A stretch of DNA of 64,000 bases from Nitrospirota bacterium (GCA_035873375.1 JAYWMQ010000006.1:65551-129550), one strand, 5' to 3'. Shown: positions 1-44,206, counted from the stretch's first letter. Notes: generated by a model from the letters alone, not told the origin. Numbers and translations: made by a program.

Positions 1-103
1 ACCTTGGACCAAACTCTCTGAGCACTAATTCAGATACCCTGTAGCCAAGGGCAAGGCCGGGACATACATGTCCGTGAAACCTTACCACATCTTCAAATGT
101 CAT
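1..103 (-). CDS. FmdE-domain protein, N-terminal fragment (gene runs off the window start)
   Basis: Reverse-strand ATG at 103-101. Translation is [34 protein letters not shown], carrying the FHGHxCPGLAxG signature of FmdE/FwdE-family proteins. Only 34 codons are visible. Confidence 0.6.
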   Translation of the reverse strand, partial: MTFEDVVRFHGHVCPGLALGYRVSELVLREFGPR

Positions 104-756
104 TAAAGCACCTCCCTGTATTTCGTTACAAGTATCCTGTAACCCTCTCTGGAGAGGTTTTCAGCCAGTCTGTCGGCATATTTGCGGTCTGTGAACTTTC
201 CTATCATGACCCTGTAGTAACGGTTACCCCTTATCGAGATTTTTCTGATATAGACCTTGCGGTAAGTGCGTGACAGCGCTGATTTCAGATCACCGGCGTT
301 TTTATAATCACGGAATGATGCGATCTGTATGGTAAATGGACCGGCGGAAGAGGAGACGTACTTTACCGGCCGGACAAAGGACATGTCCCTTCCCATATAA
401 TTCACCCGCACCCTTGCAGTGCCTTTATGTATCAACCCTATCTTTTTTGCGGCACCATATGAAAGGTCTATATCCCTGCCACGTATAAAGGGTCCCCGGT
501 CATTAACCTTTACCACAACCGAGCGTCCGTTTTCCGGATTGGTAATCTTGAGTTTTGTACCAAAGGGCAGGGTCTTGTGTGCTGCTGTCCGGGCATACAT
601 ATTATAAGTCTCGCCCGAGGCGGTCAGCCTTCCGTGGAATTTCTTGCCATACCAGGAGGCTACCATGTAACGGTCTTCAGACCTTGTTTCATGTCTTGAG
701 GCAGCGCATGCCGGTAACAGCAATACAATAATTAAAAGCAGCAGAGGCCTTTTCAT
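103..756 (-). CDS. rlpA: RlpA-family septal-ring lytic transglycosylase lipoprotein with C-terminal SPOR domain
   Basis: Signal peptide with lipobox LLPAC. DPBB core [20 protein letters not shown]...[10 protein letters not shown]-terminal SPOR-like segment [14 protein letters not shown]...YYRVMIGKF. Confidence 0.85.
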
Positions 757-8792: not shown

Positions 8793-9632
8793 TTGAGCGC
8801 TATCTTCTATGAGAGATTCGGTCATAATAAACTGGCTGTGGCAGGGAGTGTGCTTGTGGCCCTCCTATTTCTTACAGCGCTACTTGCACCTGTAATTTCC
8901 CCCTATGAACCGGATTATATTGACAGATACCACGTCCTTGAACCACCGGGCAGGCTTCATCCACTTGGCACTGACGATATTGGAAGGGATGTGCTGAGCA
9001 GGATGCTTTATGGGGCAAGGGTTTCATTGTCTGTCGGCTTTGTGGCTGTTGGCATTGCAACGTTTATTGGAATGGTAATGGGTGCAGTTGCCGGCTACTA
9101 CGGGGGCATAGCGGACAGGTTAATCATGAGATTTGTGGATGTGATGCTGTCAATACCGTCATTCTTCTTTATCCTTGCAGTTATAGCCTTTGTGGGGCCC
9201 AGCATATGGAATATCATGATCATCATAGGGGTAACCTCATGGATGGGGGTGGCCAGGCTTGTCAGAGCGGAGTTTCTTACCCTCAAGTCAAGGGAGTACA
9301 TACTCGCTGCAAGGGCGATAGGTGCGTCTGACATGAGAATAATACTCCGTCATATGCTGCCGAACAGCCTTGCCCCCGTAATAATATCGGCCGTGCTTGG
9401 TATTGCATCAGCAGTGCTCCTTGAGTCGTCACTCAGTTTTCTCGGACTTGGAGTTCAGCCGCCTATGCCGAGCTGGGGAAACATTCTTACTGCGGGCAAG
9501 GCCAATATCGAGATTGCATGGTGGCTTTCCGTCTTCCCCGGAGTGGCTATACTGATTACAGTGCTTTCCTATAACCTCCTTGGCGAGGGACTGAGAGACG
9601 CCCTTGACCCGAGATTGTGGGAAAGGCGATGA
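8793..9632 (+). CDS. ABC transporter permease, DppC/OppC type
   Basis: HPLGTDDIGRDVLSRMLYGARVSL and ILAARAIGASDMRIILRHMLPNSLAPVI. Confidence 0.9.
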   Translation: MSAIFYERFGHNKLAVAGSVLVALLFLTALLAPVISPYEPDYIDRYHVLEPPGRLHPLGTDDIGRDVLSRMLYGARVSLSVGFVAVGIATFIGMVMGAVAGYYGGIADRLIMRFVDVMLSIPSFFFILAVIAFVGPSIWNIMIIIGVTSWMGVARLVRAEFLTLKSREYILAARAIGASDMRIILRHMLPNSLAPVIISAVLGIASAVLLESSLSFLGLGVQPPMPSWGNILTAGKANIEIAWWLSVFPGVAILITVLSYNLLGEGLRDALDPRLWERR

Positions 9633-10309
9633 GGAATAAACTTCTTCTTTTTGATATTGACGGCACCCTGATTGATTCGGGACGGGCTGGTACGAGGGCT
9701 CTGGACAAGGTCTTTCTCAATCTCTTTGGCATCAGGGATGCATTTAAGGGGATCAGGATGGCCGGCAAAACCGATATCCAGATAATCAGGGAGTGCCTGA
9801 GGGTCCACGGGATACCTGACAGTGTTGGTGAAATAGAGGGGGTAGTCGGAATGTATATAGATTTATTAACTGAAGAGATAGAGAACCCGTGGCGAAGTGT
9901 AATGGCCGGGGTTGTTGATCTTCTTGAAACCCTCAAGGCAGACGGAATACCCATGGGACTGTTAACCGGAAACATAGAGACGGGTGCAAGGATAAAGCTT
10001 GACTCCTTTGGTCTCAATCAATATTTTACTGCCGGTGCATTCGGCAGTGACCATGAAGACAGGGATATGTTGTTGCCGATTGCGGTTGCAAGATTCTCCG
10101 CGCTTGGTATAAACGTTCCTCCAGAAAGGTGTATTGTTATAGGTGATACCCCCAGGGATGTAAGATGTGCAAGAGTCCACGGGGCTTCGTGTATTGCCGT
10201 CAGTACGGGATCATACAACAAAGAGGCACTTATGGAAGCAGGTGCAGACCTTGTGCTGGAGAGTCTGGAGAACAGGGAAGCCTGCCTGAGCTTTATGTCA
10301 ACAGCCTAA
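9629..10309 (+). CDS. HAD-superfamily hydrolase (phosphoglycolate-phosphatase-like)
   Basis: LLLFDIDGTLIDS motif I, LLTGN motif II, VIGDTPRDVRCA motif III/IV. ATG 9629 forms an ATGA overlap with the permease stop. The track start is GTG 9617. Confidence 0.85.
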   Translation: MRNKLLLFDIDGTLIDSGRAGTRALDKVFLNLFGIRDAFKGIRMAGKTDIQIIRECLRVHGIPDSVGEIEGVVGMYIDLLTEEIENPWRSVMAGVVDLLETLKADGIPMGLLTGNIETGARIKLDSFGLNQYFTAGAFGSDHEDRDMLLPIAVARFSALGINVPPERCIVIGDTPRDVRCARVHGASCIAVSTGSYNKEALMEAGADLVLESLENREACLSFMSTA

Positions 10310-10340
10310 GTATAAGATGAAATGCTTCAGTTGGCTTTTC

Positions 10341-10532
10341 TCATGTCTTAAAAACTTCCTTTTTGTAACTATTACTTGTATTTATCCGAGAAGAGAGTTA
10401 AACTTATAGCTAAGGGGAGTCTTACATCATCTCTTTTCTTCTCAAAGCAGGGGGGATAAATATCTGTACTTCCATATTTAAACTCAATTTGTGTCTTACG
10501 GTTACAATCTTTTTAAATGAGGAGGAGAAGGT
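10341..10532 (+). repeat. Duplicated 5' regulatory region, copy 1 (paralogous to 13543-13745)
   Basis: Shared blocks TCATGTCTTAAAAACT, GTAACTATTA, ATTTATCCGA, CTTCCATATTTAAA, AAACTCAATTTGTGTCTT and the RBS GAGGAGGAGAAG, all ahead of the ATG. Confidence 0.8.
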
Positions 10533-13427
10533 ATGCTGAAAAAAATGTGTTTCAAGACTTTCATGGGGGTGCTTATTGTCCTTTTTGCCGGATTGTGGAT
10601 TACCGGTGATGTTGCAGATGCGAGTTCCGGAGGTATGAAGCAAAGAGAGCATCATAGACACCACTCTCCCGGCGCTTCTTACAACGTAGGCGGCATAGTA
10701 AACGAACTTGGCGATGGTGAAACGGTCGTTCTTCTAAACAACGGCAGGGATAAACTTGAAATTACGGCAAACGGTGTTTTTGCCTTCTCCACACCGGTTT
10801 CCGACTTGGCCACCTACGATGTTACGGTTGAAACTCAGCCGAGCAACCAATATTGCCGCATCAATAACGGCAGCGGAACAATAAACGGTGAGGACATAAC
10901 CGATATAACCATTAGGTGTTCTATCTTTTCCGTTGCCATTGCAGCTGGGAACAACCATGCAGTAGTGCTTAAAAACGACGGCACAGTATGGACATGGGGA
11001 AATAACAACCTAATGCCGTTTCAGGTAATCGGACTTACAGACGTTATCGCCATTGCGGCCGGAGATGGTCATACAGTCGCGCTTAAAAGCGACGGTACAG
11101 TATGGACCTGGGGTGATAACAAATATGGACAACTGGGTAATGGAACAAGAACACGCAGTTATACTCCTGTGCAGGTATGCGATACCGGTGAGACCGCTCC
11201 GTGCACCAACTTCCTAACGGATGTAATCGACATCACCGCTGGAGGTGACAATATAGTGGGTATGGCGCATACAGTTGCTCTTAAGTCGGACGGCACGGTG
11301 TGGGCATGGGGAAGTAACCAGTACGGCCAGCTGGGAAATGGAACGACGACAAGAAGTACCACGCCGGTTCAGGTAAGCGGTCTTACAACTGTTGTCGCAA
11401 TTGCTGCAGGAAAAAATTATACCATTGCGCTTAAAGCCGACGGTACGGTAAGGGCTTGGGGAAGGAACTGGCCCGGTACGCTGGGAGATGGGACGACAGA
11501 TGAGAGCACCACGCCGGTGGAGGTAAGCGGCCTAACGGATATTAATGCAATTGCGGCCGGAAACGATCATACCCTCGCGCTTAAAATCGACGGCACGGTA
11601 TGGGCCTGGGGAGGGAACATCCATGGTCAGCTGGGAGACGGAACGAGTACATATAAAATCACGCCGATTCAGGTAAGCGGCCTTACTGACGTTGACGCAA
11701 TAGCCGCCGGATGGGGGCACAGCATCGCACTTAAATCCGATGGTACAACCTGGACGTGGGGAGATAACAAATATGGCCAGTTGGGAAGAACTGCAACTTA
11801 TTACTGGGATTATTACACGCCTGCACCGGTAGACTCCCTCATGGACGTAATCGGTATTGCGGCCGGAGGCTCTTTAGCTATAGAGAACACAGCGTTCTCT
11901 CAAGGGTACAGTCTATCGCTTAAATCTGACGGCACGGTCTGGGCATGGGGAGATAATCAATACGGCCAGTTGGGCGATGGCACAAGGACAAACAGCCTTA
12001 CGCCGGTACAAGTGTTGGGTGAAACAGCTCCCTACATTGTGGACAACTACAGTTTGGGCGGTACGGTAAACGGTCTTGTTGATGGAGAAACTATTGTTCT
12101 TCAAAACAACGGCGTGAACGACCTGACAATAACGGCAGACGGTGTTTTTAGCTTCTCCACACCGGTCTCTGACTTGGCCGCCTATAACGTTGCGATTTCA
12201 ACCCAGCCGGATAGCCGGTTTTGCAGGGTCGATAACGACAGCGGAACAATAAACGGCGAGGATGTAACCGACATCTCGGTTACATGCTTCGACTTTTTTG
12301 CGGATGTAACTGCTGTTGCGTCAGGAAGTCGTTTTACCATTGCGCTTAAGGCTGATGGTACGGTATGGGCTTGGGGAGCTGGAGGCGCTCTGGGAGACGG
12401 AACAGAGACAAGTAGTGCCACACCTGTGCAGGTTTGTGATGCCGGAGAAACCGCTCCCTGCTCCAGTTTTCTCACGGATGTCGCTGCTATCGGTGCCGGG
12501 GATTCCAATGCTGTCGCGCTTAAAACCGACGGTACGGTCTGGGCCTGGGGAAATAACAGTGATGGACAGCTGGGTGACGGTACAACGACGAGCAGCAGGG
12601 TGCCCATTCAGGTCGACATAACCGCCATTGCCAGCGGAGCTGCTCATACAATTATTCTTAAAACCGACGGTACGGTCTGGGCCTGGGGATGGAACTACTA
12701 TGGCCAGCTGGGAGACGGAACGACAATAGATCGCACCACGCCTGTGCAGGTAAGCGGACTTACAGACGTAATCGCCATTGCGGCTGGAGTTTATCATAAC
12801 GTTGCGCTTAAAAGCGACGGCACGGTCTGGGCCTGGGGGTATAATGGTCTGGGCCAGCTGGGAGACGGAACGACAATAGATCGCTTAACGCCTGTTCAGG
12901 TAAGCGACCTCTCAAACGTAACCGTCATTGCGGCAAAGCCCTATTCTGCTCTCGCTCTGAAGAGCGAAGGTACAGTGTGGACGTGGGGAGCAATAGGACG
13001 TCTGGATATAACGACAACTGAAACCTGTAATAACAAGCCTTGCTCAACAACGCCTGTGCAGGCAAACGACCTCACGGACGTAACTGATATCGCTGCTGGC
13101 CGCGGTTTTAGTGATAATACAATTGTACTTAAGAGCGACGGCACAGTCTGGGCTTGGGGAGATAATGGGTCTGGCACGCTGGGAGATGGGACGACAACAG
13201 ATAGCTCCACGCCTGTGCAGGTAAACGAACTCACGGATGTAATCGACATCACGGCCGGAAATGGTCATGCAATTGCGCTTAAAACCGACGGTACGGTATG
13301 GGCCTGGGGAAATAATTCCTGGAGTCAGTTGGGGTTGGCAGTGACTACAAGCTGCCCCGACATAGATATGGGTGTGTTTTACTATCCGTGCTCCACTACG
13401 CCCGTACCGGTCCTGGTAACGCCGTAA
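10533..13427 (+). CDS. Secreted RCC1-repeat protein: two (beta-sandwich module + 7-bladed RCC1 propeller) units
   Basis: Signal peptide. Fourteen repeats of about 50 aa of the form AAGxxHxxALKxDGTVWAWGxNxYGQLGDGTT..TPVQV. Two roughly 80-aa modules at aa 50-130 and about 506-586. Confidence 0.9.
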   Translation: MLKKMCFKTFMGVLIVLFAGLWITGDVADASSGGMKQREHHRHHSPGASYNVGGIVNELGDGETVVLLNNGRDKLEITANGVFAFSTPVSDLATYDVTVETQPSNQYCRINNGSGTINGEDITDITIRCSIFSVAIAAGNNHAVVLKNDGTVWTWGNNNLMPFQVIGLTDVIAIAAGDGHTVALKSDGTVWTWGDNKYGQLGNGTRTRSYTPVQVCDTGETAPCTNFLTDVIDITAGGDNIVGMAHTVALKSDGTVWAWGSNQYGQLGNGTTTRSTTPVQVSGLTTVVAIAAGKNYTIALKADGTVRAWGRNWPGTLGDGTTDESTTPVEVSGLTDINAIAAGNDHTLALKIDGTVWAWGGNIHGQLGDGTSTYKITPIQVSGLTDVDAIAAGWGHSIALKSDGTTWTWGDNKYGQLGRTATYYWDYYTPAPVDSLMDVIGIAAGGSLAIENTAFSQGYSLSLKSDGTVWAWGDNQYGQLGDGTRTNSLTPVQVLGETAPYIVDNYSLGGTVNGLVDGETIVLQNNGVNDLTITADGVFSFSTPVSDLAAYNVAISTQPDSRFCRVDNDSGTINGEDVTDISVTCFDFFADVTAVASGSRFTIALKADGTVWAWGAGGALGDGTETSSATPVQVCDAGETAPCSSFLTDVAAIGAGDSNAVALKTDGTVWAWGNNSDGQLGDGTTTSSRVPIQVDITAIASGAAHTIILKTDGTVWAWGWNYYGQLGDGTTIDRTTPVQVSGLTDVIAIAAGVYHNVALKSDGTVWAWGYNGLGQLGDGTTIDRLTPVQVSDLSNVTVIAAKPYSALALKSEGTVWTWGAIGRLDITTTETCNNKPCSTTPVQANDLTDVTDIAAGRGFSDNTIVLKSDGTVWAWGDNGSGTLGDGTTTDSSTPVQVNELTDVIDITAGNGHAIALKTDGTVWAWGNNSWSQLGLAVTTSCPDIDMGVFYYPCSTTPVPVLVTP

Positions 13428-13436
13428 CGCTTATCG

Positions 13437-13483
13437 CTCTTTGCACCCTCTGTGGTTTTCTTTTTCACAGTGGGTGCAAAGAG
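13437..13483 (+). terminator. Hairpin downstream of the first RCC1 gene
   Basis: CTCTTTGCACCC-T-CTGTG / loop / CACAG-T-GGGTGCAAAGAG, 10 nt after the stop. Only a weak T tract follows (GTTTTG). Homologous to the hairpin after the second gene. Confidence 0.6.
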
Positions 13484-13542
13484 CAGCCGTTTTGCTGATG
13501 CATACCCATCCTTCATTCATCCCTCCCTGAGTTTATCTCTTT

Positions 13543-13745
13543 TCATGTCTTAAAAACTCCCTTTTCGTAACTATTAGTAGCATTTATCCGAAAGAAGTGT
13601 TATGCTTATACCTAAGGGAAATCGTTTCCCTATTTTTATAGTCCTCACTATAGAAGAATATCTGAATTGATGCTTCCATATTTAAAATTTAAACTCAATT
13701 TGTGTCTTGCAGTTACCATATATTTTTTAATAAGGAGGAGAAGAT
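13543..13745 (+). repeat. Duplicated 5' regulatory region, copy 2
   Basis: Aligns block by block with 10341-10532 (see that entry). Confidence 0.8.
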
Positions 13746-16181
13746 ATGCTGAAAGGAGCGAGGTTCAGGACTTTCATAGGGGTGCTTATTCTTCTTTTTG
13801 CCGGATTGTGGATTACCGGCTGTACTGAAGAGATAGGTTCAATGGGGATGAAGCATAAGTACGATCATGACAGTGCGGATGAGACAAAGGTCATTGCCGT
13901 AGCGGGTGGAAACTTTTACTCCGTTGAGCTTAAATCAGACGGTACGGTCTGGACATGGGGAAGGAACGAATCCGGCCAGCTGGGAGACGGGACAACGATA
14001 GACAGTCCGGCGCCGATACAGATAAGCGGACTCACGGATGTAACCGCCGTTGCAGGCGGGGGTTACCATGCAATGGCGATTAAAGATGACGGCACGGTGT
14101 GGGCATGGGGAAGTAACAATGCAGGTCAGTTGGGCGATGGAACGACGACAGACAGGACTACGCCGGTGCAGGTGATCGGGCTTGCGGACGTGACCGCCGT
14201 TGCTGCCGGATGGAATCATAGCATAGCACTCAAAGCCGATGGCACGGTGTGGGTATGGGGCTGGAATGGAGGAGGCCTGCTGGGAGTGGAAACAACCGAA
14301 AAATGCGAGTTTGGCTCTCCAGCCCTGTCTTGTTCCACCACGCCGGTGCAGGTAAGTGAACTTACGAATATAACCGCTATTGCAGCCGGAAGTTACTATT
14401 CCATAGCACTCGAAGATGACGGTACGGTCTGGACCTGGGGAAATAACTATGCAGGTCAGTTGGGGAGAACAGAAGACGGAAACACACCTACACCAGTGGC
14501 CTCCCTTACGGATATAACCGCTATTGCAGCCGGAGCTTATCATACCGTAGCGCTTAAAGCCGATGGAGCTGTATGGGGATGGGGGAGCAATGAACACGGT
14601 CAGCTGGGAGACGGTACGGCGACATGGAACTCCATCACACCGGTACAAGCAAGCGGACTTACGGATGTAATCGCCATCACCGCCGGAGGCAAAACAAATT
14701 CGGGGCATACCATGGCGCTTAAAGCTGACGGTACCGTATGGGCATGGGGAAGCAATGAACACGGCCAGCTGGGTGTAATAACAACGGAAGTTTGTGAAAT
14801 ATCCCTGACTGCTGGTCGAACCGGGACTACTTATTCTAATCTTTGTTCCACCACGCCGGTGCAGGTAAGCGATTTTCCTGACATAACTGCCATTACAGCT
14901 GGATATTACCATAGTATTGCGGTAAAAGAGGATGGCACAGCATGGGCATGGGGAGATAACAAATACGGCCAGGTGGGGGCGGCAACAACTGAAGTTTGCG
15001 GTTATGGGGATTTTGATTGCAGTCCCACACCCGTACCTGTAAGGAGCAAAGTACCAGGCACATTCAGCATAGGTGGTACGGTAAGCGGTCTTGCTGGAAC
15101 GTTGGTCATTCAAAACAATGGAGGAGATGATCTGGTAATCACGGAGAATGGCTCTTTTACCTTTGCAACAGAACTTGAGGACCTGGATGTTTATGATATA
15201 GGGATTTTAACCCAACCTGATGGTCAGACATGCGAAATCACAAGTGCCAATACTGGAAGGGTCAATGCAACGGACGTAACGGACATAGAGATTGTATGCC
15301 CCTATCCCTTTACGGAAGTCGTTGCTATTGCTGCCGGAACTTTTCATTCCATTGCTCTCAGAACCGACGGTACGGTCTGGACGTGGGGACAAAACTTTAA
15401 CGGTCAGTTGGGTGATGGGACAAGAGATAACAGCCCTGTACCTGTACAGGTCGGATTGTCGGATGTTACCGCAATTGCTGCGCGAAATACTGGTAGCATA
15501 GCGCTTAAAAGCGACGGCACAGTATGGACGTGGGCGAGAGATGGTTACTTTATACCCGTACAGTTAAATGGACTTACGGATATAAGCGCCATCGCTGGGG
15601 GAGGCAACCACTCTCTTGCTATCAAAGCCGTTGACACGCTGTGGGCGTGGGGAAAGAATTTCTCTGGCCAGCTGGGAGACGGAACAACGACGGACAGCTA
15701 CACGCCTGTAAAGGTATCCGGTCTTACAGACGTAAACGCCGTTGCCGGGGGACTCTACCATACCGTAGCACTTAAAAGCGACGGTACGGTGTGGACGTGG
15801 GGATGGAACGAATACGGACAGTTGGGAGACGGAACGACGATAGACAGCCATATCCCTATACAGGTGAGCGGCCTTACGGACATTGTCGCAGTAGCGGCCG
15901 GAAGCGGTCACACAGTGGTTCTTAAAAGCGATGGTGCGGTGTGGGCATGGGGTGGAAACTCTGACGGCCAGCTGGGAGATGGAACGACGATAGACAGCCG
16001 TATCCCTATACAGGTGAGCGGCCTTACGGACATTGTCGCAGTAGCGGCCGGAAGTGGTCATACAATGGCTCTTAAAAGCGATGGCACGGTGTGGGCATGG
16101 GGAAGTAACGCCTCCGGGCAGTTGGGAGATGGAACGACAACAAACAGTACCACACCTGTACAGGTAGTACTGAGACCATAA
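13746..16181 (+). CDS. RCC1-repeat lipoprotein: propeller + beta-sandwich module + propeller
   Basis: Signal peptide ending in lipobox ITGC (Cys26). Thirteen RCC1 repeats. One 80-aa module, FSIGGTVSGLAGTLVIQNNGGDDLVITENGSFTFAT...DVTDIEIVC. Confidence 0.9.
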   Translation: MLKGARFRTFIGVLILLFAGLWITGCTEEIGSMGMKHKYDHDSADETKVIAVAGGNFYSVELKSDGTVWTWGRNESGQLGDGTTIDSPAPIQISGLTDVTAVAGGGYHAMAIKDDGTVWAWGSNNAGQLGDGTTTDRTTPVQVIGLADVTAVAAGWNHSIALKADGTVWVWGWNGGGLLGVETTEKCEFGSPALSCSTTPVQVSELTNITAIAAGSYYSIALEDDGTVWTWGNNYAGQLGRTEDGNTPTPVASLTDITAIAAGAYHTVALKADGAVWGWGSNEHGQLGDGTATWNSITPVQASGLTDVIAITAGGKTNSGHTMALKADGTVWAWGSNEHGQLGVITTEVCEISLTAGRTGTTYSNLCSTTPVQVSDFPDITAITAGYYHSIAVKEDGTAWAWGDNKYGQVGAATTEVCGYGDFDCSPTPVPVRSKVPGTFSIGGTVSGLAGTLVIQNNGGDDLVITENGSFTFATELEDLDVYDIGILTQPDGQTCEITSANTGRVNATDVTDIEIVCPYPFTEVVAIAAGTFHSIALRTDGTVWTWGQNFNGQLGDGTRDNSPVPVQVGLSDVTAIAARNTGSIALKSDGTVWTWARDGYFIPVQLNGLTDISAIAGGGNHSLAIKAVDTLWAWGKNFSGQLGDGTTTDSYTPVKVSGLTDVNAVAGGLYHTVALKSDGTVWTWGWNEYGQLGDGTTIDSHIPIQVSGLTDIVAVAAGSGHTVVLKSDGAVWAWGGNSDGQLGDGTTIDSRIPIQVSGLTDIVAVAAGSGHTMALKSDGTVWAWGSNASGQLGDGTTTNSTTPVQVVLRP
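15831..16130 (+). repeat. Near-identical 150-bp tandem duplication (one RCC1 blade)
   Basis: 15831-15980 versus 15981-16130. The first 74 nt differ at 1 position. Encodes DGTTIDS(H/R)IPIQVSGLTDIVAVAAGSGHT... twice. Confidence 0.9.
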
Positions 16182-16190
16182 AGCGCCCCG

Positions 16191-16233
16191 CCTTTGCTCC
16201 CTCTATGGTTTTTCACCACAGAGGGAGCAAAGG
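16191..16233 (+). terminator. Hairpin downstream of the second RCC1 gene
   Basis: Perfect 14-bp stem CCTTTGCTCCCTCT / AGAGGGAGCAAAGG with a 15-nt loop, 10 nt after the stop. No clear U tract. Confidence 0.55.
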
Positions 16234-16494
16234 GGTAGCCGTCTTCGCCTATACCGAGATTCACCATTCAGACCTGTCCGCCTTTCGGCAAAGAGGCCAT
16301 CTTGGGGAATATTGACGGGTACTGCCCCGTTCAGTAATAATCCTTCCGGCAAATCAAACGTTTCTACAAATTTCTTGTAATAAACATTATATTGCTTTTG
16401 TTTCTGAACTGTGATACTATCTTTATAAACCCAATTTCGCATATTAATTTTTTGCCTCAGGGGGGGCTGCAGGCATAATGACCACGTTACACTT

Positions 16495-18486
16495 ATGAAC
16501 CTGTCTGTTTATTGCCCACCTTGTGAGGAGGGGAACTTGGAAAGCCAAAATGATAAGTCAAGCAATGTCTCTTGCATAGACGAGAAATGGTTCCACGCTG
16601 TCTGTAAAAGCATCGGGGATGCTGTTATGGCAACCGATAAAGCCGGCATTGTGCAGTATTTGAATCCGGTCTCCGAAAGACTGACCGGTTGGCTGGAAAA
16701 GGATGCTGTGGGAAGACCGCTGGAGAGCGTTTTCCGGATCATAAATGAGGAAACCCGTAAAGAGGTGGAGGACCCGGTCAAGAAGGTCTTGCGCGAAGGC
16801 CGGGCTGTAGGATTGGCAAACCCTACCCTGCTAATTTCAAAAGACGGAACAGAAATCCCCATTGCTGACAGCGGTTCACCCATCAGAGACTGTAAAGATG
16901 AAATCGTCGGTGTGGTACTGGTTTTCAGTGACCAGACCGAGGAACGCAAGGCGCAGTATGCCTTGCAGGAGGCCAAGGAATTTGCTGAAAGCATCGTTGC
17001 CACCATCCGTGAACCACTAATTGTCCTTGATGCACAATTGAAGGTAATTTCCGCCAATCATCGCTTCTGCCAATCATTCCAGGTGGAAGAGAAGGAAACA
17101 GCCGGCAGACACATTTATGATCTGGGTAACCGGCAATGGGATATTCCCGGACTGAGGGAGCTGCTGGAAGATATTTTGCCACAGAACACCAGTTTCAGCG
17201 ATTTTAAGGTGGAACACGAGTTCGAACATATCGGAAAACGCATTATGCTGTTAAACGCCCGGCGTATATACCACGAAGCGAACAAGACCAGGCTGATCCT
17301 GCTCTCTATTGAGGATGTCACAGAACACTTACGACTGGAGGATCAATACCGTCAGGCGCAAAAGCTGGAGGCCATTGGTCTTCTTTCAGGAGGCGTGGCC
17401 CATGACTTCAATAACCTCCTGACGGTGATTCTTGGCTATGGCGAGGTCATTCTACGAAGACTCCACCGGGATGACCCGTTGCGACAGGATATCAATAAGA
17501 TTCTAAATGCATGCCACCAGGGTGCTAGTCTGACGCATCAACTTCTGGCCTTCAGCCGCAGGCAGACTCTTCAACCCGAGGTTATCGAACTTAACAGGCT
17601 TCTTGACGATCAGCAGAAACTGCTCAGGAGACTGATTGGCGAGAACATCGAGTTCATAACAACGTTTGCTGACAACCTTGGCCGTGTAAAGGCAGACCCC
17701 GGCCAGATTGAACAGGTCATTATGAACCTTGCCGTTAATGCCAGGGATGCCATGCCCCGTGGCGGCAAACTGATTATTGAGACCTCTAATGTTGAGCTTG
17801 ACAAGGAGTACAGTAAGGGTCACATAAGTGTTGTGCCGGGAAAGTATGTAATGCTCGCCATTACAGATACGGGGGTCGGCATGGATAAGGAGACCCGGGG
17901 GAAGATATTTGAGCCTTTTTTCACCACCAAGGAACTGGGTAGAGGAACGGGCCTGGGTCTGTCGACTGTCTACGGAATCGTCAAACAGTCCGGCGGCCAC
18001 ATCTGGGTCTACAGCGAACCGGATAAGGGCACGACTTTCAAGATATATCTGCCTTGCACAGAGGATGCTCCTACTGCCAAGGTTGAACATGAGGAGGTGG
18101 AAGTACAGAGTGGCTGCGGGCATATACTCGTTGTGGAAGATGAGTCAGCAATCCGGGAACTTATAGAGATACAGCTTGAAAACCTGGGTTATCAGGTTAC
18201 CCTGGCCGCAAATGGCGGAGAAGCCCTTCTGGCTATCGAAGAAAAGGGGATTAGACCTGATCTGCTCATAACGGACGTAGTCATGCCCGGGATGAGTGGT
18301 GTAGTGTTGCTCAAACGGCTCCGCAAGACCCTTCCGGAGCTCAGGGTGCTCTTCATGTCAGGTTACACCGACAATGTCATCGTCCACCAAGGCATTCTCG
18401 ATCCGGGCATTCCTTTTATTCAGAAACCGTTCTCAATTAAGGGCCTTTCGGCCATTGTGTGTAAGGAATTACAAAGCAGCAAATGA
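16495..18486 (+). CDS. Hybrid sensor histidine kinase (2 PAS + HisKA + HATPase_c + receiver)
   Basis: PAS-like segments. H-box [18 protein letters not shown]-box [11 protein letters not shown]-boxes DTGVGM and GTGLGLS. C-terminal REC ILVVEDE...[14 protein letters not shown]...KPF. Confidence 0.9.
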
Positions 18487-20969: not shown

Positions 20970-22820
20970 CTATTTACCCTCCTTCTTATACCTGATCTTT
21001 CGATGCATCCGTTTTTCCAGGGGACTTTTGTATTCTAACACTTCCCAGTTTGTTGCTTCCCTGAAACTGGGGGTGCCATCCGGATTATTTCCATCAAATA
21101 TCCTGAACCTGTTTCTACTGAGGACACTCCCTGATGAATGGCAATCACTGCAACGAAGTGCTTCTTTTGCATTCCTGACTCCATGAGTAATCGTAAGATA
21201 TGCACCTGCAGGATAATTCGGGCCGTGTGCATCCTGCATGTATTCACCTGTTGGCATCAATGACATGGAATAGTAATCACCAGGATACAGCCCGTTAAAT
21301 ATTCCTACGAGAGGACTATCTGAATCAGCTCCTAAAAACCTTCCAATGGCATTCAAGTTAAAAAATGTCTTTGTCATTGCGCTGTTAACGGCATCACCTA
21401 AGTTAGAGGTTAGAGCAAGAACCTCCCTGTCAAGATTGAAAATGAGCGGCATTGAAGCCATCTTTTCCTGCATTTTTGTAGAGAGGCTGGAATCCAGTGT
21501 TCTGTTTCCCAGAGTTCCAGTTCCATCAGACGCTGTTGCATAAGGATGATCCCCGGGACGCATCATGCCGAGTCCGACTAAAGCCCTCTGAATGGTCGAG
21601 TCATCCAGAACATCTGCCATTACAAGACCTGATGCATCTACAGGCAGGCCTGAAGTAAGAGGCTTGAAAGGCCATATTTTGCTTCCGGAATCATATCTGC
21701 TGCCAATAGGTTGAGCCAGAAAACTTGCGGTTCCGTTGAACCAAAGGTACTTTGGTCTCAGCTTATATTCTTCATATATATCGTACTCATTTTTTCCCTC
21801 TGTAATATAGTCACGGGTATCATATGCACTATACGCGTTCTCTCGTGCATACCTGATGCTTATTCCATCAGAAGTCCACGAGTAAAATGTCGCCCCTGAC
21901 GTCCAGGGAATATGACAGGTCTGGCAAGCAATAAAGGTTAAGTGTCTATTGAGTATTTTACGATTTTTTTTGAGGTGAGGTGTCTCGGAATGGCATTTTT
22001 CGCATTTCATGGCATTTTCCGACGAACCGACACGGTAATCAGAAGCAAATAGTTCAGAAACAAAATTCCCTCTCGGAATTTTATGCTGTTTCACCTCATG
22101 GCAACGAGTGCATGCATTGCCATTGAACGCAGGAGAAGCAATATGGACATCATTCCAGGCTTCGAATGGTGTACCCCGTTCATCCGAAGATGCTGCCTCA
22201 TAATGACATCTGAGACAAAGTTCCGTTTTTGTTTTGCCGATGCTCTTGACAGCATCCCATGTCCTGTCCTGGTACCAGGTTTTTATAACCCATCCATTAT
22301 CTAACGTTTCATCTACCAATCGGTCCCGGCCGTTGTATTGTGACGCATGACAAATGAGACAATCAACTCCGTCTCGTGACTTTTCAATATTTTCTATCGG
22401 CATACCTGTTGATTGGTCAATATCATTCATTGTTCCAGGCAGATATCTCCCCACATGACATTTTCCACATCCCCTGCTGTCATTGAAACTATAGTTAACA
22501 AGGGTATTTCCTCCCGTCATACCACTGCTCCGGTCATAGTGACCATGCATGCCTCCACCGGGATAATCGATATACTGATTTTCGGACCTGAAGGTATAAT
22601 GAACCGTATTCATTACTTCAGTGATCTTTTCCTCATGACAACGTGCGCATAGCTGAGATGTAAGAAGTTCAGCATATCCGTCCGACTCACCGTCCATTGA
22701 ATCAACAGACAGAAACATATTGTAGAGATTTGAATGGCTCCAATCTTCTGCCCATCCAACAGATGCACTCATGAAAAAAAAGAGCAGTGTTAGTATCTTA
22801 AGTAAACTTCTTATTTCCAT
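20970..22820 (-). CDS. Secreted octaheme c-type cytochrome
   Basis: Signal peptide. Eight CxxCH motifs: CARCH, CGKCH, CLICH, CLRCH, CTRCH, CEKCH and CQTCH within aa 58-303, and CSDCH near aa 565. Confidence 0.9.
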   Translation of the reverse strand: MEIRSLLKILTLLFFFMSASVGWAEDWSHSNLYNMFLSVDSMDGESDGYAELLTSQLCARCHEEKITEVMNTVHYTFRSENQYIDYPGGGMHGHYDRSSGMTGGNTLVNYSFNDSRGCGKCHVGRYLPGTMNDIDQSTGMPIENIEKSRDGVDCLICHASQYNGRDRLVDETLDNGWVIKTWYQDRTWDAVKSIGKTKTELCLRCHYEAASSDERGTPFEAWNDVHIASPAFNGNACTRCHEVKQHKIPRGNFVSELFASDYRVGSSENAMKCEKCHSETPHLKKNRKILNRHLTFIACQTCHIPWTSGATFYSWTSDGISIRYARENAYSAYDTRDYITEGKNEYDIYEEYKLRPKYLWFNGTASFLAQPIGSRYDSGSKIWPFKPLTSGLPVDASGLVMADVLDDSTIQRALVGLGMMRPGDHPYATASDGTGTLGNRTLDSSLSTKMQEKMASMPLIFNLDREVLALTSNLGDAVNSAMTKTFFNLNAIGRFLGADSDSPLVGIFNGLYPGDYYSMSLMPTGEYMQDAHGPNYPAGAYLTITHGVRNAKEALRCSDCHSSGSVLSRNRFRIFDGNNPDGTPSFREATNWEVLEYKSPLEKRMHRKIRYKKEGK

Positions 22821-40955: not shown

Positions 40956-41511
40956 GGTTTATTTTTATGTAGGATTTCTCTCTCAGTTTTTCAATGAGTT
41001 TCCTGAGATGTTTATTTACCTCTCTTTCCCTCAGAAGTCTCTCAATATCATCCCGGACATCGTCTATCAGGGTCTTTCCGAACCTTTGCCTGTTTTCATT
41101 ATAGAACCTTTCGATCTCCTCCGGTGGAATCTTTATAAAGACCCTGACTTTTATATCAACATACTCTTTAATAAGTTCATCGTCTGATTTGCCGCGTAAC
41201 CGTATCCTCTTTGCCTCCCTGAGCAGGAGCCTTCGGTTAATCAGGGCATTTATAGCCTCTTCTTCAGAAAGCCCGGGTGCTAACTTTTTGGCCTTTTCGG
41301 TGTATTGCATAAAATCCGTCAGGGTAATCGCCTCATCATCAATAAAGGCAACAACCCGGTCAATGAGCTCAGCAGATGAAGGTTGCAGGAATGCCGTCAG
41401 TATCAGTGTAAGTGTCAATGTCAGTGTTAGTAGTATAGTAATAATGTAGTTGCTGTATCTGGAACCCGCAACCCGCAACCCGCAACCCGCAATGCTGTCA
41501 TCAGAATGCAT
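40942..41511 (-). CDS. SurA N-terminal-domain-only periplasmic chaperone (start ambiguous)
   Basis: Signal peptide YIITILLTLTLTLTLILTAFLQPSSA, then LIDRVVAFIDDEAITLTDF...INRRLLLREAKR. Candidate starts are ATG 41511 (overlaps the bamA stop by 11 nt) or TTG 41478 inside the heptamer tract. Confidence 0.75.
   Translation of the reverse strand: MHSDDSIAGCGLRVAGSRYSNYIITILLTLTLTLTLILTAFLQPSSAELIDRVVAFIDDEAITLTDFMQYTEKAKKLAPGLSEEEAINALINRRLLLREAKRIRLRGKSDDELIKEYVDIKVRVFIKIPPEEIERFYNENRQRFGKTLIDDVRDDIERLLREREVNKHLRKLIEKLREKSYIKINLTPS
41463..41492. repeat. Heptanucleotide tandem repeat, AACCCGC x4.3 (GCGGGTT on the coding strand)
   Basis: Read directly as AACCCGC AACCCGC AACCCGC AACCCGC AA. Lies 9 nt 3' of the bamA stop, in the first codons or 5' leader of the chaperone gene. 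Confidence 0.9.
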
Positions 41512-44206
41512 GTCCAATACTGAAATGTACCTCTCCCGCACTTTCACCCTCCTTTCTGTCAAGTTTATGCCCATAGTCGATCCGTATGGGCCCAACTGGT
41601 GTCCTGTATCTTATACCCAGCCCGGCTGTATATCGAAAGGTCAGATTCATATCGACCGTTTTTGTCCATACATTTCCTCCGTCAAGAAATCCGACAATAC
41701 TAAAACCCCTTCCAATATAAGTTCTCAGTTCAATATTGGACATCAGAAAGGCGTTTCCGCCGGTTGGTGTACCATCCTTACCCTTTGGTCCGAGGGTGTC
41801 CTGTTCAAAACCCCTCACAGTATTTCTCCCTCCGAGGAAGAATCTCTCAACAATGGGAAGTTCTCTTGTGTCAACAAATCCCTGTGCCGCTCCTCCTTTA
41901 ACGGCAAGGGCAAGAGTAAATCGTCTTCCGAGTTTCCTGTAAGTACTTGCATGAATAGTCAATTTCACAAAATCCGTTTCTCCAAGGAGATAAGTACTCG
42001 CAAATTTCAGGGAGGCGCCAACCAATACCCCCCTGGTAGGGTCAAAAGGATTATCCCTGGTGTCATAGAGTGCACCGGGACGTATGCTGCTGATAGCGAG
42101 TGTGCCTTCGTCCTCCCTTGACAAGACAACATCCGGCTTTAAATCAAAGGTTTCGACAAGGGAAAAGTCATAAGCAATCTGTGCCTTCAGGTTATTGGTC
42201 AGGTTTTTTTCAAGTGATACCCCGGAGGAGTTTTTCTTCATCCTGTACCTGACCTCTCCGGTGTCGATACTCTTTTCCGTACGGGTCTCTCTGAGGAGGA
42301 AGGCGTTAAAGACGAAAGGTCTTCCAAGCAGATAGGGTTCATGATAGCCAAGAACAAATCTTTCCTTCAGCGTACTCAATTCCCCTCTCAGATGTATCCT
42401 CCTGTTCATCCCCCATAGATTCCTGTAACTTATGTCTATGGAGCCTCTCAAACCTTCATAGTCCTCGTAACCAAGACTGAATTCAACCACACCCGGATTG
42501 CGTTCACTAACGGTTATAACGATATCACGTTTGTTGTCCTTTTTATCAAGTAGCTTGATATCAATATCTTTAAAGAGCCCGAGACGATAAAGACGTTTTG
42601 TCCCTTCCAAAAGCAATTTGTAGTTAAAGGGTTCGCCTTCTTTATGAATGAACTCCCTTTCAATGACCTCGGTCCTTGTGAACATGTTACCCCTGACTAT
42701 TGTTTTACCGAAATATTCCTTTTCACCTTCCGTAATCCTGAATATGACTTTCACTGACTGTCCTGATGTCATGGCATCAACAGAGACATTTATATCTGTA
42801 AAACCCTGTTCCTTATAACTGTCGGTCAAACGCTTTTTTGCATTTATTATGTCCAGTTCATTGTAGGGGGCATTCCTTTTAATGTTTAAAATCCTGTAGA
42901 TCTCTTTATCAGTAAAAAAGGCGTTGCCTTTGGCTATGACCTCACCAATCCGGAACCGCGGCCCCTCGTTCAGGGTAAAGTTTATATCCACTGTTCCTGT
43001 TTCCTCGGATATATTGACAGCAGTATCCTCAATCTTTGCATTCAGATAACCCAGCGCCCTGTAAAGTCCTGTTATGGTTTCAGCGTCCGGCTCTAAAAGG
43101 TCAGGATTATAGGGGGACCCCTCTTTCAGGCTTATAACATTTTTAAGCATCTTTTCACTGATGGAGTTGTTCTTGAATTCTATCTTCTGTATCTTATATG
43201 CTTTCCCTTCGTAAATAAAAAAGGTAAGGGAAATGGTCTTCTCATCCTCAGTCCTTAAAGGTGCAACCTGGGCATAAATAAATCCCTTCTGATGGTAAAG
43301 AGAGAGTATTTTTGCCGAGACTTCTTCAATTAACTCATCCTCAATCTCCTCTGCTTCACTGAAGGGCATTATCTTCAGAAGTTTTGATGTGCTTATCTCC
43401 GTATTTCCGTTTATCTCAATCTTCAATCTCTTGCCAGGAGAAACAAGAACTGTAAGAAGACCCTCGGAAAACGTAAAGGGGCCGACTATTGGATTAAGAT
43501 AGCCCTTTGACTTCAGGTATTCCCTGATTCTCTCCAGGTCTTTTTTTATCTTTTCAACGTTATATATATCACCTGATTCAATGTACATCTTCTGCCGCAG
43601 CCATTGATCAGCACCCTTGATCTCAATCCTCTGGATAACGAGGGGCTCACCCTCATTGACTTTTATTTTTATAATCGTCCTGTAAGGTTTTGGAGCTTTT
43701 TCCACAGTCAACGATAGTGATGCCTCCGGAAACCCAATCAGTCCGAGGGAGTTCTTGAGTTCTTTCCTGGCTTTCTCAATAAGGTCATAGCGCATTATAC
43801 CGTCCTCTTTCAGGATAAACATCTTTTTTATCTCCCTGCCTGAAAGGTATCGGTTGCCGGAGACCTTTATTTTATAAATGTATTCGCGTTCCCTGACCTG
43901 AATGAGAAGGGTCTTTCCCGGTGCATAACTGACTGCAATATCCTCAAATATACCCTTTCTGAATGCCCTCTTTATCCCCTCACTTATTGTCCCCCTGGCT
44001 ATCAATCCCCGACGGATATTCATCAAATAGAGGAGTTCATCTTTTGTGCATGAGGCAAGTCCCTTTATGATGATCTTCTCTGCAAGGAAACCCTCTGCGG
44101 CCTGAACCTTCAAAGGAAGAGTCAGAAAAGACGGAACCATCACAAGGACAAACAGCAGACAGCAGGCACTACGCACCAATTTTCTTACCCGGGTTTCTGC
44201 CGTCAT
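41501..44206 (-). CDS. bamA: Outer membrane protein assembly factor BamA (Omp85)
   Basis: Signal peptide, multiple POTRA-like repeats, C-terminal beta-barrel ending ...VHFSIGHAF. ATGA overlap with tamB. Confidence 0.9.
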   Translation of the reverse strand: MTAETRVRKLVRSACCLLFVLVMVPSFLTLPLKVQAAEGFLAEKIIIKGLASCTKDELLYLMNIRRGLIARGTISEGIKRAFRKGIFEDIAVSYAPGKTLLIQVREREYIYKIKVSGNRYLSGREIKKMFILKEDGIMRYDLIEKARKELKNSLGLIGFPEASLSLTVEKAPKPYRTIIKIKVNEGEPLVIQRIEIKGADQWLRQKMYIESGDIYNVEKIKKDLERIREYLKSKGYLNPIVGPFTFSEGLLTVLVSPGKRLKIEINGNTEISTSKLLKIMPFSEAEEIEDELIEEVSAKILSLYHQKGFIYAQVAPLRTEDEKTISLTFFIYEGKAYKIQKIEFKNNSISEKMLKNVISLKEGSPYNPDLLEPDAETITGLYRALGYLNAKIEDTAVNISEETGTVDINFTLNEGPRFRIGEVIAKGNAFFTDKEIYRILNIKRNAPYNELDIINAKKRLTDSYKEQGFTDINVSVDAMTSGQSVKVIFRITEGEKEYFGKTIVRGNMFTRTEVIEREFIHKEGEPFNYKLLLEGTKRLYRLGLFKDIDIKLLDKKDNKRDIVITVSERNPGVVEFSLGYEDYEGLRGSIDISYRNLWGMNRRIHLRGELSTLKERFVLGYHEPYLLGRPFVFNAFLLRETRTEKSIDTGEVRYRMKKNSSGVSLEKNLTNNLKAQIAYDFSLVETFDLKPDVVLSREDEGTLAISSIRPGALYDTRDNPFDPTRGVLVGASLKFASTYLLGETDFVKLTIHASTYRKLGRRFTLALAVKGGAAQGFVDTRELPIVERFFLGGRNTVRGFEQDTLGPKGKDGTPTGGNAFLMSNIELRTYIGRGFSIVGFLDGGNVWTKTVDMNLTFRYTAGLGIRYRTPVGPIRIDYGHKLDRKEGESAGEVHFSIGHAF

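Follow-up and report, generated by a model that had tools for sequence, protein, structure and literature searches.

How do two neighbouring genes come to resemble each other so closely at their 5′ ends and so much less over the rest of their length? This question is raised by a pair of RCC1-repeat genes, called here A and B, in a 64,000-nucleotide (nt) stretch of DNA from a Nitrospirota bacterium (hereafter the window), which belongs to a 199,921-bp contig of a metagenome-assembled genome (MAG). A description made earlier from the nucleotide sequence (the sequence-only reading) had noticed two neighbouring plus-strand genes of 964 and 811 amino acids (aa), both of which we find as open reading frames (ORFs), and had explained them by tandem duplication. 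We consider it likely that A and B are exported RCC1 double-propeller cassettes evolving as a mosaic family. According to this account, they would form a two-gene array of a multigene family known, where the sources of its sequences are named, from Nitrospirota only, whose Sec-exported products would combine two RCC1-like beta-propellers with one or two small beta-sandwich domains. Each gene would be a cassette of three parts: first a conserved leader together with an upstream region that includes a strong ribosome-binding site, next a variable body, and last a long-stem hairpin terminator. Recent copying between the old paralogs A and B would have involved about 210 nt of upstream DNA and their first 25 codons. 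Homologous recombination at the conserved ends would drive the evolution of the family, with bodies and N-terminal modules being swapped, array genes gained or lost, and single blades gained or lost, while equivalent promoters inside the shared upstream module would express both genes.

10533-13427, plus strand: gene A, 964 aa, MEC4684419.1 (P0001); ORF and translation, Pfam, blade-motif count
13746-16181, plus strand: gene B, 811 aa, MEC4684421.1; ORF and translation, Pfam, blade-motif count, AlphaFold model

Leaders, bodies and locus states

Codons 1-25 of A and B show a synonymous divergence (dS) of 0.13, against 1.38 for the other 712 aligned codons, where nonsynonymous divergence (dN) is high, at 0.33. 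The body of A is closer to that of P0003, a protein from another lineage (71% identity), than to that of B (57%), whereas its leader is closer to that of B (75%) than to that of P0003 (54%). More generally, leaders group by genome and bodies by subtype in the identity matrix. This clustering indicates that A is a chimera, in which a recently copied resident upstream module and 25 codons sit on an old, divergent A-type body that opens with a His-rich linker and a sandwich domain. The dS contrast and the P0003 identities together point to old paralogs with a recently copied 5′ module. The first 25 codons had been called near-identical, which is true of residues 12-25 (13/14) and not of the whole stretch (19/25).

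The same chromosomal site in related genomes is occupied in different ways:

L010, L015 and L016, flanks about 95% identical: two genes, X and B′, the first of which is not A
L004 and L012, flanks 87-90% identical: one RCC1 gene
L018 (GCA_015491675.1), flanks 76-77% identical: fully syntenic from HslVU through OppBC-HAD to the PAS kinase, with one RCC1 gene, 71% identical to B in nucleotides, like the flanks

The single RCC1 gene of L018 sits between the HAD and PAS kinase genes. When the L004/L012 gene is compared with B, a maximum chi-square scan places a breakpoint after codon ~99; dS is 0.22 on its 5′ side, in line with the 0.25 of the neighbouring PAS gene, and 1.09 over 690 codons on its 3′ side. 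This jump in dS implies that the body has been replaced in one of the two lineages, that of L004/L012 or that of the window. Gene X of L015 joins a lipoprotein leader to a body 80% identical to that of P0043, a protein of the second lineage with the other leader type; X, which carries its own upstream module, lies within a disrupted HAD gene. Its neighbour B′ has 95% identity to B over aligned residues. Recurrent recombination at conserved ends is shown by these comparisons, and so is that A followed by B, as in the window, is only one form among several that this fluid locus takes.

Genes next to the locus are decayed in related genomes. In L015 (6003-10000) gene X interrupts the HAD gene, leaving a 5′ stub of 23 codons on one side and a 3′ remnant of ~110 nt on the other, and in L012 (700-1130) and L004 (1-165) the OppC-like permease gene is down to its last ~190 and ~40 nt, respectively, and the HAD gene to 6 codons. 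Just upstream of the truncated permease gene, at L012 ~838-925, a perfect 15-nt inverted repeat (TCTTAAATATTAAGT ... ACTTAATATTTAAGA) surrounds ~60 nt and looks like the remnant of a miniature inverted-repeat transposable element or insertion-sequence end.

The survey of homologs and neighbourhoods that the sequence-only reading had proposed revealed a family with arrays of 1, 2, 3 or at least 6 genes. RCC1-repeat proteins as such, thought in that reading to be uncommon in bacteria, turned out to be abundant there: among 8,000 scored candidates, 7,940 reach E<1e-30, and highly repetitive RCC1/BLIP-II propellers are reported to be mostly bacterial (Pereira & Lupas 2022, PMC9218822). Within this large set, the subfamily of A and B, which counts P0003, P0026, P0020, P0108, P0114, P0128, P0130, P0029, P0087, P0043, P0089 and P0017 among its members, shares the leader, the sandwich and a C-terminal ...PVQVLVTP ending. 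Its sources, where named, are Nitrospirota or Nitrospirae only. Several members lie in arrays:

L001: 3 genes
L003: 2 genes
L006: at least 2 genes
L005: at least 6 genes, some of them frameshifted

Leaders and intergenic regions of 100-175 nt are nearly identical within an array. P0020 and P0108 have different N-terminal modules and are 75% identical over 874 aa. At three second-lineage loci, genes for an ABC ATPase and MacB/FtsX-type permeases adjoin the RCC1 arrays (L001 6411-9594; L006 132-305; L003 12821-15549); these genes resemble LolCDE or MacAB, L003 adds an HlyD-type adaptor, and the window has Opp-type permeases upstream instead.

The extent of divergence and the distribution of subtypes also bear on tandem duplication. 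A recent duplication of the whole unit, with bodies diverging fast under positive selection and ends held by purifying selection, would account for adjacent units that point the same way and are homologous at both their 5′ and their 3′ end, and the high dN of the bodies fits it. We find it very improbable given that the synonymous sites themselves differ about ten-fold between leader and body, that the nearest body to that of A belongs to another lineage, that the extra His-rich linker and sandwich of A are common to P0003 and P0020 and not to B, and that body subtypes cross lineages (X and P0043, 80%; P0020 and P0108, 75%). What holds of the duplication first proposed is the adjacency of paralogs, each with its own upstream copy, leader and terminator; a simple duplication does not fit the ten-fold dS contrast.

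Could such a locus serve to vary the cell surface? L004 and L012, whose RCC1 genes are nearly identical (dS 0.031), differ in a short repeat located between the distal and proximal upstream blocks, (TCACA)x9 in L012 (1344-1388) and (TCACA)x3 in L004 (~366-380), a difference that may hint at variation of expression or phase. It is the main support for the idea that the arrays bring about a recombination-driven diversification of envelope or surface propellers, in which portable homology arms would swap bodies and N-terminal modules between paralogs, perhaps between strains, and a hypermutable (TCACA)n would set expression; we hold this idea to be unlikely. A full contingency system of phase- or antigen-variable surface proteins, with the conserved ends as recombination arms and the simple repeat tuning or switching expression, appears quite unlikely. 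It would agree with the repeat difference, with the variation of locus occupancy and array size among close relatives, with the existence of mosaic genes and with the frameshifted members of the L005 array. Against it, both upstream copies of the window are devoid of the (TCACA) segment and no short-period repeat of the kind that defines contingency loci occurs in window positions 10200-16400; no invertase, inverted-repeat switch or silent truncated cassette is seen in the window; the differences are between genomes, not within a population; and the frameshifts may be assembly errors.

Propellers, sandwich domains and export signals

Both proteins belong to the RCC1-like repeat, or RCC1-like domain (RLD), group by their ~50-aa units, which score above the curated Pfam cut-off. 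PF25390 matches the two proteins with 654.6 and 701.7 bits (cut-off 150), PF00415 covers 12 stretches in each, and PF13540 is also far over its cut-off in both. The blade motif (K/x)xDGTVWxWG, with a spacing mostly of 50 residues, occurs 14 times in A (7 then 7) and 13 times in B (7 then 6), so that the blade numbers given by the sequence-only reading agree with the motif count and, for B, also with the strand pattern of the AlphaFold model. At 811-964 aa, the proteins do not deserve the label “giant” that they had received. The two propellers had been recognized correctly, and 84-aa beta-sandwich domains, two in A and one in B, had been missed:

A residues 48-130 (10674-10922), plus strand: first beta-sandwich; repeat D10, AlphaFold model
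A residues 503-586 (12039-12290), plus strand: second beta-sandwich; repeat D10, AlphaFold model
A, one after each sandwich, plus strand: propellers with seven blades each; blade-motif count 7+7
B residues ~47-430, plus strand: first propeller, seven blades; motifs and model
B residues 436-520 (15051-15305), plus strand: beta-sandwich; repeat D10/D14
B, after the sandwich, plus strand: C-terminal propeller with just six blade motifs

The order of domains is leader, His-rich linker (GMKQREHHRHHSP), sandwich, propeller, sandwich and propeller in A, and leader, acidic His-containing linker, propeller, sandwich and propeller in B. The three copies of the 84-aa module, detected as direct-repeat families D10/D14, model as a seven-stranded beta-sandwich with a predicted local distance difference test (pLDDT) score of 86. 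A sequence comparison with the PDB gave nothing below E 0.3 for this domain, and a fold search only weak Ig, CnaB or prealbumin-like neighbours (E >= 0.013).

In the AlphaFold model of B (pLDDT 86.3), residues 1-44 form a helix that passes into disorder, and the sandwich links the two propellers. Its N-terminal propeller has seven blades at pLDDT >90, with a template-modelling (TM) score of 0.88 to UVR8. Its C-terminal propeller has six strand groups corresponding to the six motifs, with lower confidence at residues 590-630; a six-blade RCC1 ring would be unusual. The best Foldseek matches of B are UVR8, RPGR, HERC2, RCC1 and BLIP-II, with E from 1e-35 to 1e-18 for UVR8, RCC1, HERC2 and BLIP-II. 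B, with 13 blades, is one 50-aa blade short of its ortholog P0128 (14 blades; 853 aa; L010, L015 and L016), to which it is 95% identical across aligned residues; the eight residues GNNYAGQL are present in B and not in P0128. This difference comes from an alignment, blade counts by regular expression across the family being too noisy for fine claims. The final blades of B (15570-16174) are 86% identical in DNA.

Both leaders consist of a basic n-region followed by a hydrophobic core and differ in how they end. The leader of B, MLKGARFRTFIGVLILLFAGLW-ITG-C26 (...LFAGLWITG-C26), fits the lipobox [LVI][ASTVI][GAS]C by eye, and its lipobox Cys is also found in P0114, P0128, P0130, P0029, P0087 and others. 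That of A, ...LFAGLWITGDVADA/SS (...LFAGLWITGDV-A-D-A/SS), has by eye an A-x-A signal-peptidase-I site, with a predicted signal peptide of residues 1-30 cut at ADA/S31; A-type relatives read GGV-A-E-A/RS at this position. B is probably lipid-anchored because its leader carries a lipobox with Cys26, and A, because of the signal-peptidase-I site, should be a soluble envelope or secreted protein once released. Export signals are therefore present in both proteins as had been suggested, and free secretion of both does not follow, since a lipobox in B and a signal-peptidase-I site in A mean that “secreted” has to be read as exported across the inner membrane. Elsewhere in the window, BamA/TamA-like and TamB genes (41501-48294) confirm a diderm envelope. 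A few genes downstream of the pair, on the minus strand (20970-22820), there is a 616-aa multihaem c-type cytochrome with MtrC/MtrF-like domain matches.

Upstream module, terminator hairpins and the neighbouring kinase

The ~200 nt in front of each start codon had been reported to align in blocks, an observation that we can extend to ~210 nt:

10322-10532, plus strand: upstream module copy 1; direct-repeat families D13, D15 and D17, alignments with copy 2, L004, L010/L015 and L012
10340-10374, plus strand: copy 1 distal core, CTCATGTCTTAAAAACTTCCTTTTTGTAACTATTA
10378-10421, plus strand: copy 1 middle block; alignment
10422-10468, plus strand: copy 1 poorly conserved stretch; alignment
10469-10514, plus strand: copy 1 proximal block, CTTCCATATTTAAACTCAATTTGTGTCTT...
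10520-10527, plus strand: copy 1 Shine-Dalgarno sequence, AGGAGGAG
13508-13745, plus strand: upstream module copy 2; repeats and alignments
13542-13576, plus strand: copy 2 distal core; alignment
13580-13623, plus strand: copy 2 middle block; alignment
13615-13640, plus strand: copy 2 small hairpin and T-run; terminator-like call at 13615-13631
13673-13725, plus strand: copy 2 proximal block; alignment
13732-13740, plus strand: copy 2 Shine-Dalgarno sequence; alignment

The two copies are 82% identical over 10335-10421/13537-13623, 100% over 10469-10482/13673-13686 and 87% over 10476-10514/13687-13725, and the ribosome-binding site and 5′ coding region are 76% identical (10507-10655/13720-13868). 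In the 64-kb window there are exactly two occurrences of the 35-nt distal block, and in shuffled sequences none. The close lineage of the window has six copies of the module (A and B of the window, L004, L012, and X and B′ of L015), all of which keep a nearly invariant distal core, TCATGTCTTAAAAACTyCyTTTTyGTAACTATTA, and a proximal block, ...TTTAAACTyAATTTGTGTCyT. Their middle block contains, just after the distal core, a weak TTTATC-N18-TATAnn read off the alignment. A and B are probably expressed from equivalent promoters within this shared module.

Does the conservation of the module reveal regulation? A dedicated regulator, which might act downstream of the neighbouring PAS hybrid kinase, could bind the blocks, and selection for co-regulation of A and B would then maintain them; we regard this as possible though doubtful. 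The near-invariance of the 35-nt distal core in six copies, its A/T-rich and partly palindromic composition, the weak TTTATC-N18-TATAnn that follows it in all six, and the persistence of the kinase beside the RCC1 gene in L004 and L018 speak for such sites, and some functional constraint on the distal core is plausible. However, the module is 87-88% identical between genomes whose flanking DNA is 87-90% identical, so no extra constraint is shown, and in L018, with flanks at 76%, it is unalignable except for a ~27-nt vestige and the ribosome-binding site. The blocks are thus kept, as had been expected of orthologs, in L004, L012 and L010/L015 (flanks 87-95% identical) and not in the syntenic L018, a pattern of recent common descent more than of long-term constraint. 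The similarity between the two copies of the window is itself explained by recent copying.

The distal core was also searched as a pattern in two big collections. Among 185,579 genomes, a set that does not include that of the window, it gave two Nitrospinota hits only and no regulon, and in metagenomes L004, L010 and another copy of the same Nitrospinota ORF. The motif search with the conserved upstream blocks suggested by the sequence-only reading hence leads to orthologous loci alone, apart from this chance-like match, which also argues against regulator sites. The Nitrospinota matches, treated as chance, lie inside a small minus-strand ORF ending in ...GVTKKEFLRLIGKR; they come from groundwater MAGs and reach 24/25 nt of the distal core (L007 4129-4153; L008 884-908; L011 3401-3425). 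On its reverse strand, the distal core of the window would read VTKRKFLRH.

The PAS hybrid kinase, named by the sequence-only reading as a possible regulator to which nothing directly linked the pair, finds no support in this role. It has PAS, HisKA, HATPase and receiver domains and no DNA-binding output domain; L010/L015 do not have it and L012 has only fragments of it, though these genomes keep the upstream region and an RCC1 gene. Of the proposed co-regulated pair, what holds is that each gene has the same upstream region; that its blocks are regulator sites is doubtful, their conservation being that of the flanks. Some form of co-regulation is nonetheless plausible because both proteins are exported. 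The kinase ORF may be annotated with a start that lies too early: a deletion of 4 nt affects L004 in the stretch matching window positions 16495-16626, and its gene is called from the ATG equivalent to window position 16627 (MATDKAG...).

The shared region could also be a structured cis-regulatory RNA (riboswitch or leader) or a small-peptide gene. The conservation of ~200 nt ahead of a strong ribosome-binding site and the small hairpin with T-run of copy 2 would suit an RNA, yet this hairpin is missing from copy 1, the folds of the two copies are not significant (z = -0.39 for copy 1 and -1.88 for copy 2), and an Rfam scan of 9500-17000 gave no curated match, only two sub-threshold hits of microRNA models, both on the terminator hairpins. 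For the small-peptide version, the ORFs in the module differ between copies, none of them being common to both. We consider either version extremely improbable. The accessions MEC4684419 and MEC4684421 differ by two, implying that the annotators called some small coding sequence between A and B; no ORF in 13428-13745 is conserved in the other upstream copies.

In the second lineage, a sigma-54 motif GG-N10-GC (TGGCAC-N5-TTGC) precedes the first array gene in L001, L003, L006 and L014; it was not found in the window or in the upstream modules of the first lineage. In these second-lineage regions (L001 9595-10000; L003 6713-7184; L006 501-1013; L014 ~9400-9600), a sigma-54-like GGCAT-AGAAC-TTGC is preceded by two copies of TGTCGGAAAATTTTACA resembling enhancer-binding sites and followed by a TGTGTCTTCAGTATTTGTAAC block that resembles the distal core of the window.

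At the other end of each cassette, a hairpin starts ~10 nt past the stop codon:

13436-13484, plus strand: hairpin after gene A (inverted repeat I1); 19-bp stem, 11-nt T-rich loop, TTTT 5 nt past the stem
16191-16233, plus strand: hairpin after gene B (inverted repeats I2 and I4); 19-bp stem, 5-nt loop, weak T-run

In both, the arms of 19 nt are 95% complementary, and the two hairpins align with each other, in support of the homology claimed for them. Behind 15 family genes there are homologous hairpins, in whose alignment 91.6% of cells are paired, a value that falls to 40-69% when the 3′ partner is slid; 7/17 pairs have changed on both sides, which only 2/500 shuffles reach. They are stable G+C-rich stem-loops right after the stop codon, as expected for the stem of an intrinsic terminator, which is most likely what they are. 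The T-run after the stem is TTTT in A and only GTCTTC in B, and neither hairpin was called by the consensus scan; many relatives have a longer stem of about 26 bp with TTTT to TTTTTT behind it. Between lineages, the loop TTTTCTTTTT (window 13455-13465; homologous loops in L001, L003, L005, L006 and L010) and the uppermost part of the stem (CCCTCTGTGG / CACAGAGGG) vary less than the lower stem, in which the substitutions are compensatory.

Known propellers and the biology of the family

RCC1, UVR8, RPGR and HERC1/2 share with A and B the ~50-aa repeat with the same signature motifs and a seven-blade N-terminal propeller, and Foldseek aligns B with these RLD targets at target-normalised TM scores of 0.8-0.89. 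All of these are eukaryotic and intracellular, and they include a Ran exchange factor, a UV-B receptor and ubiquitin-ligase modules. By contrast, the window proteins are bacterial and exported and combine a Sec or lipoprotein leader with two propellers and with sandwich domains as spacers, and by this comparison Ran guanine-nucleotide exchange by A or B is not expected. The Legionella effector LegG1/PieG, an RCC1-repeat protein secreted by a type IV system, acts on host Ran, and it has no Sec leader, double propeller or array. We know of no eukaryotic host for these Nitrospirota.

A bacterial comparison is offered by BLIP-II, a secreted RCC1-type seven-blade propeller that is a pure, tight protein binder (PMC9218822) and matches the structure of B with E about 1e-19 and TM about 0.8. 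BLIP-II differs in being a single ~270-aa propeller with shorter blades, no sandwich domains and no place in a tandem array; unlike BLIP-II, the window proteins have no link to beta-lactamases. By analogy with other RCC1-like propellers, BLIP-II among them, our best guess is that A and B may be binding proteins without catalytic activity, located in the envelope or at the surface of the cell. Amplified bacterial propellers have highly similar blades, and blade number varies between near-identical relatives, as it does between B (13) and P0128 (14). It is thus already documented that such propellers amplify their blades and vary in blade number; that work covers amplification within a gene and not multigene arrays with shared expression and export cassettes (PMC9218822). 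The modular arrays are, in this light, a tidy case of concerted and mosaic evolution and not a new principle.

For the arrangement of the arrays, a parallel can be drawn with the Vlp and Vsp proteins of mycoplasmas. Their genes form tandem clusters with a conserved 5′ non-coding region and prolipoprotein signal peptide followed by diverging repetitive mature regions, and simple repeats in their promoter regions vary in length; the products are short, repetitive surface lipoproteins, for which phase and size variation at high frequency has been demonstrated. The window copies differ in having no simple repeat, and only some members of the Nitrospirota family are lipoproteins.

Several points weigh against the account of mosaic, exported cassettes. 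We did not find the donor of the A body, and divergence estimates in such repeat-rich bodies can be inflated by misaligned blades; the body of L018 is, however, as divergent as its flanks (71% versus 72-77%), which shows that nothing intrinsic to the body prevents its alignment. The loci compared all come from metagenome contigs, some of whose rearrangements could be assembly artefacts, and L015 has masked N runs. The signal peptide and lipobox calls were made by eye, without a predictor. A protein search with a leader profile retrieved two fragments of 38-40 aa only and missed known family members, so it says nothing on other types of cargo behind the same leader. A scan for sigma-70 and terminator consensus found no promoter in either upstream copy, with counts at the level of shuffled sequences, and the binding role is one that we infer from the fold.

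Metagenomes very commonly contain exported bacterial RCC1-repeat proteins, which are almost entirely uncharacterised. The locus of A and B provides a clean, well-bounded example, with conserved modules for expression, export and termination around bodies that have been swapped, duplicated and resized, and it offers natural comparisons between soluble and lipid-anchored proteins, 13 and 14 blades, and one-gene and two-gene loci. At present, this is a descriptive evolutionary observation. If the arrays did serve to diversify envelope or surface propellers, contingency-type surface variation, the logic of which has hitherto been known mainly in host-associated pathogens, would extend to free-living, uncultivated Nitrospirota.

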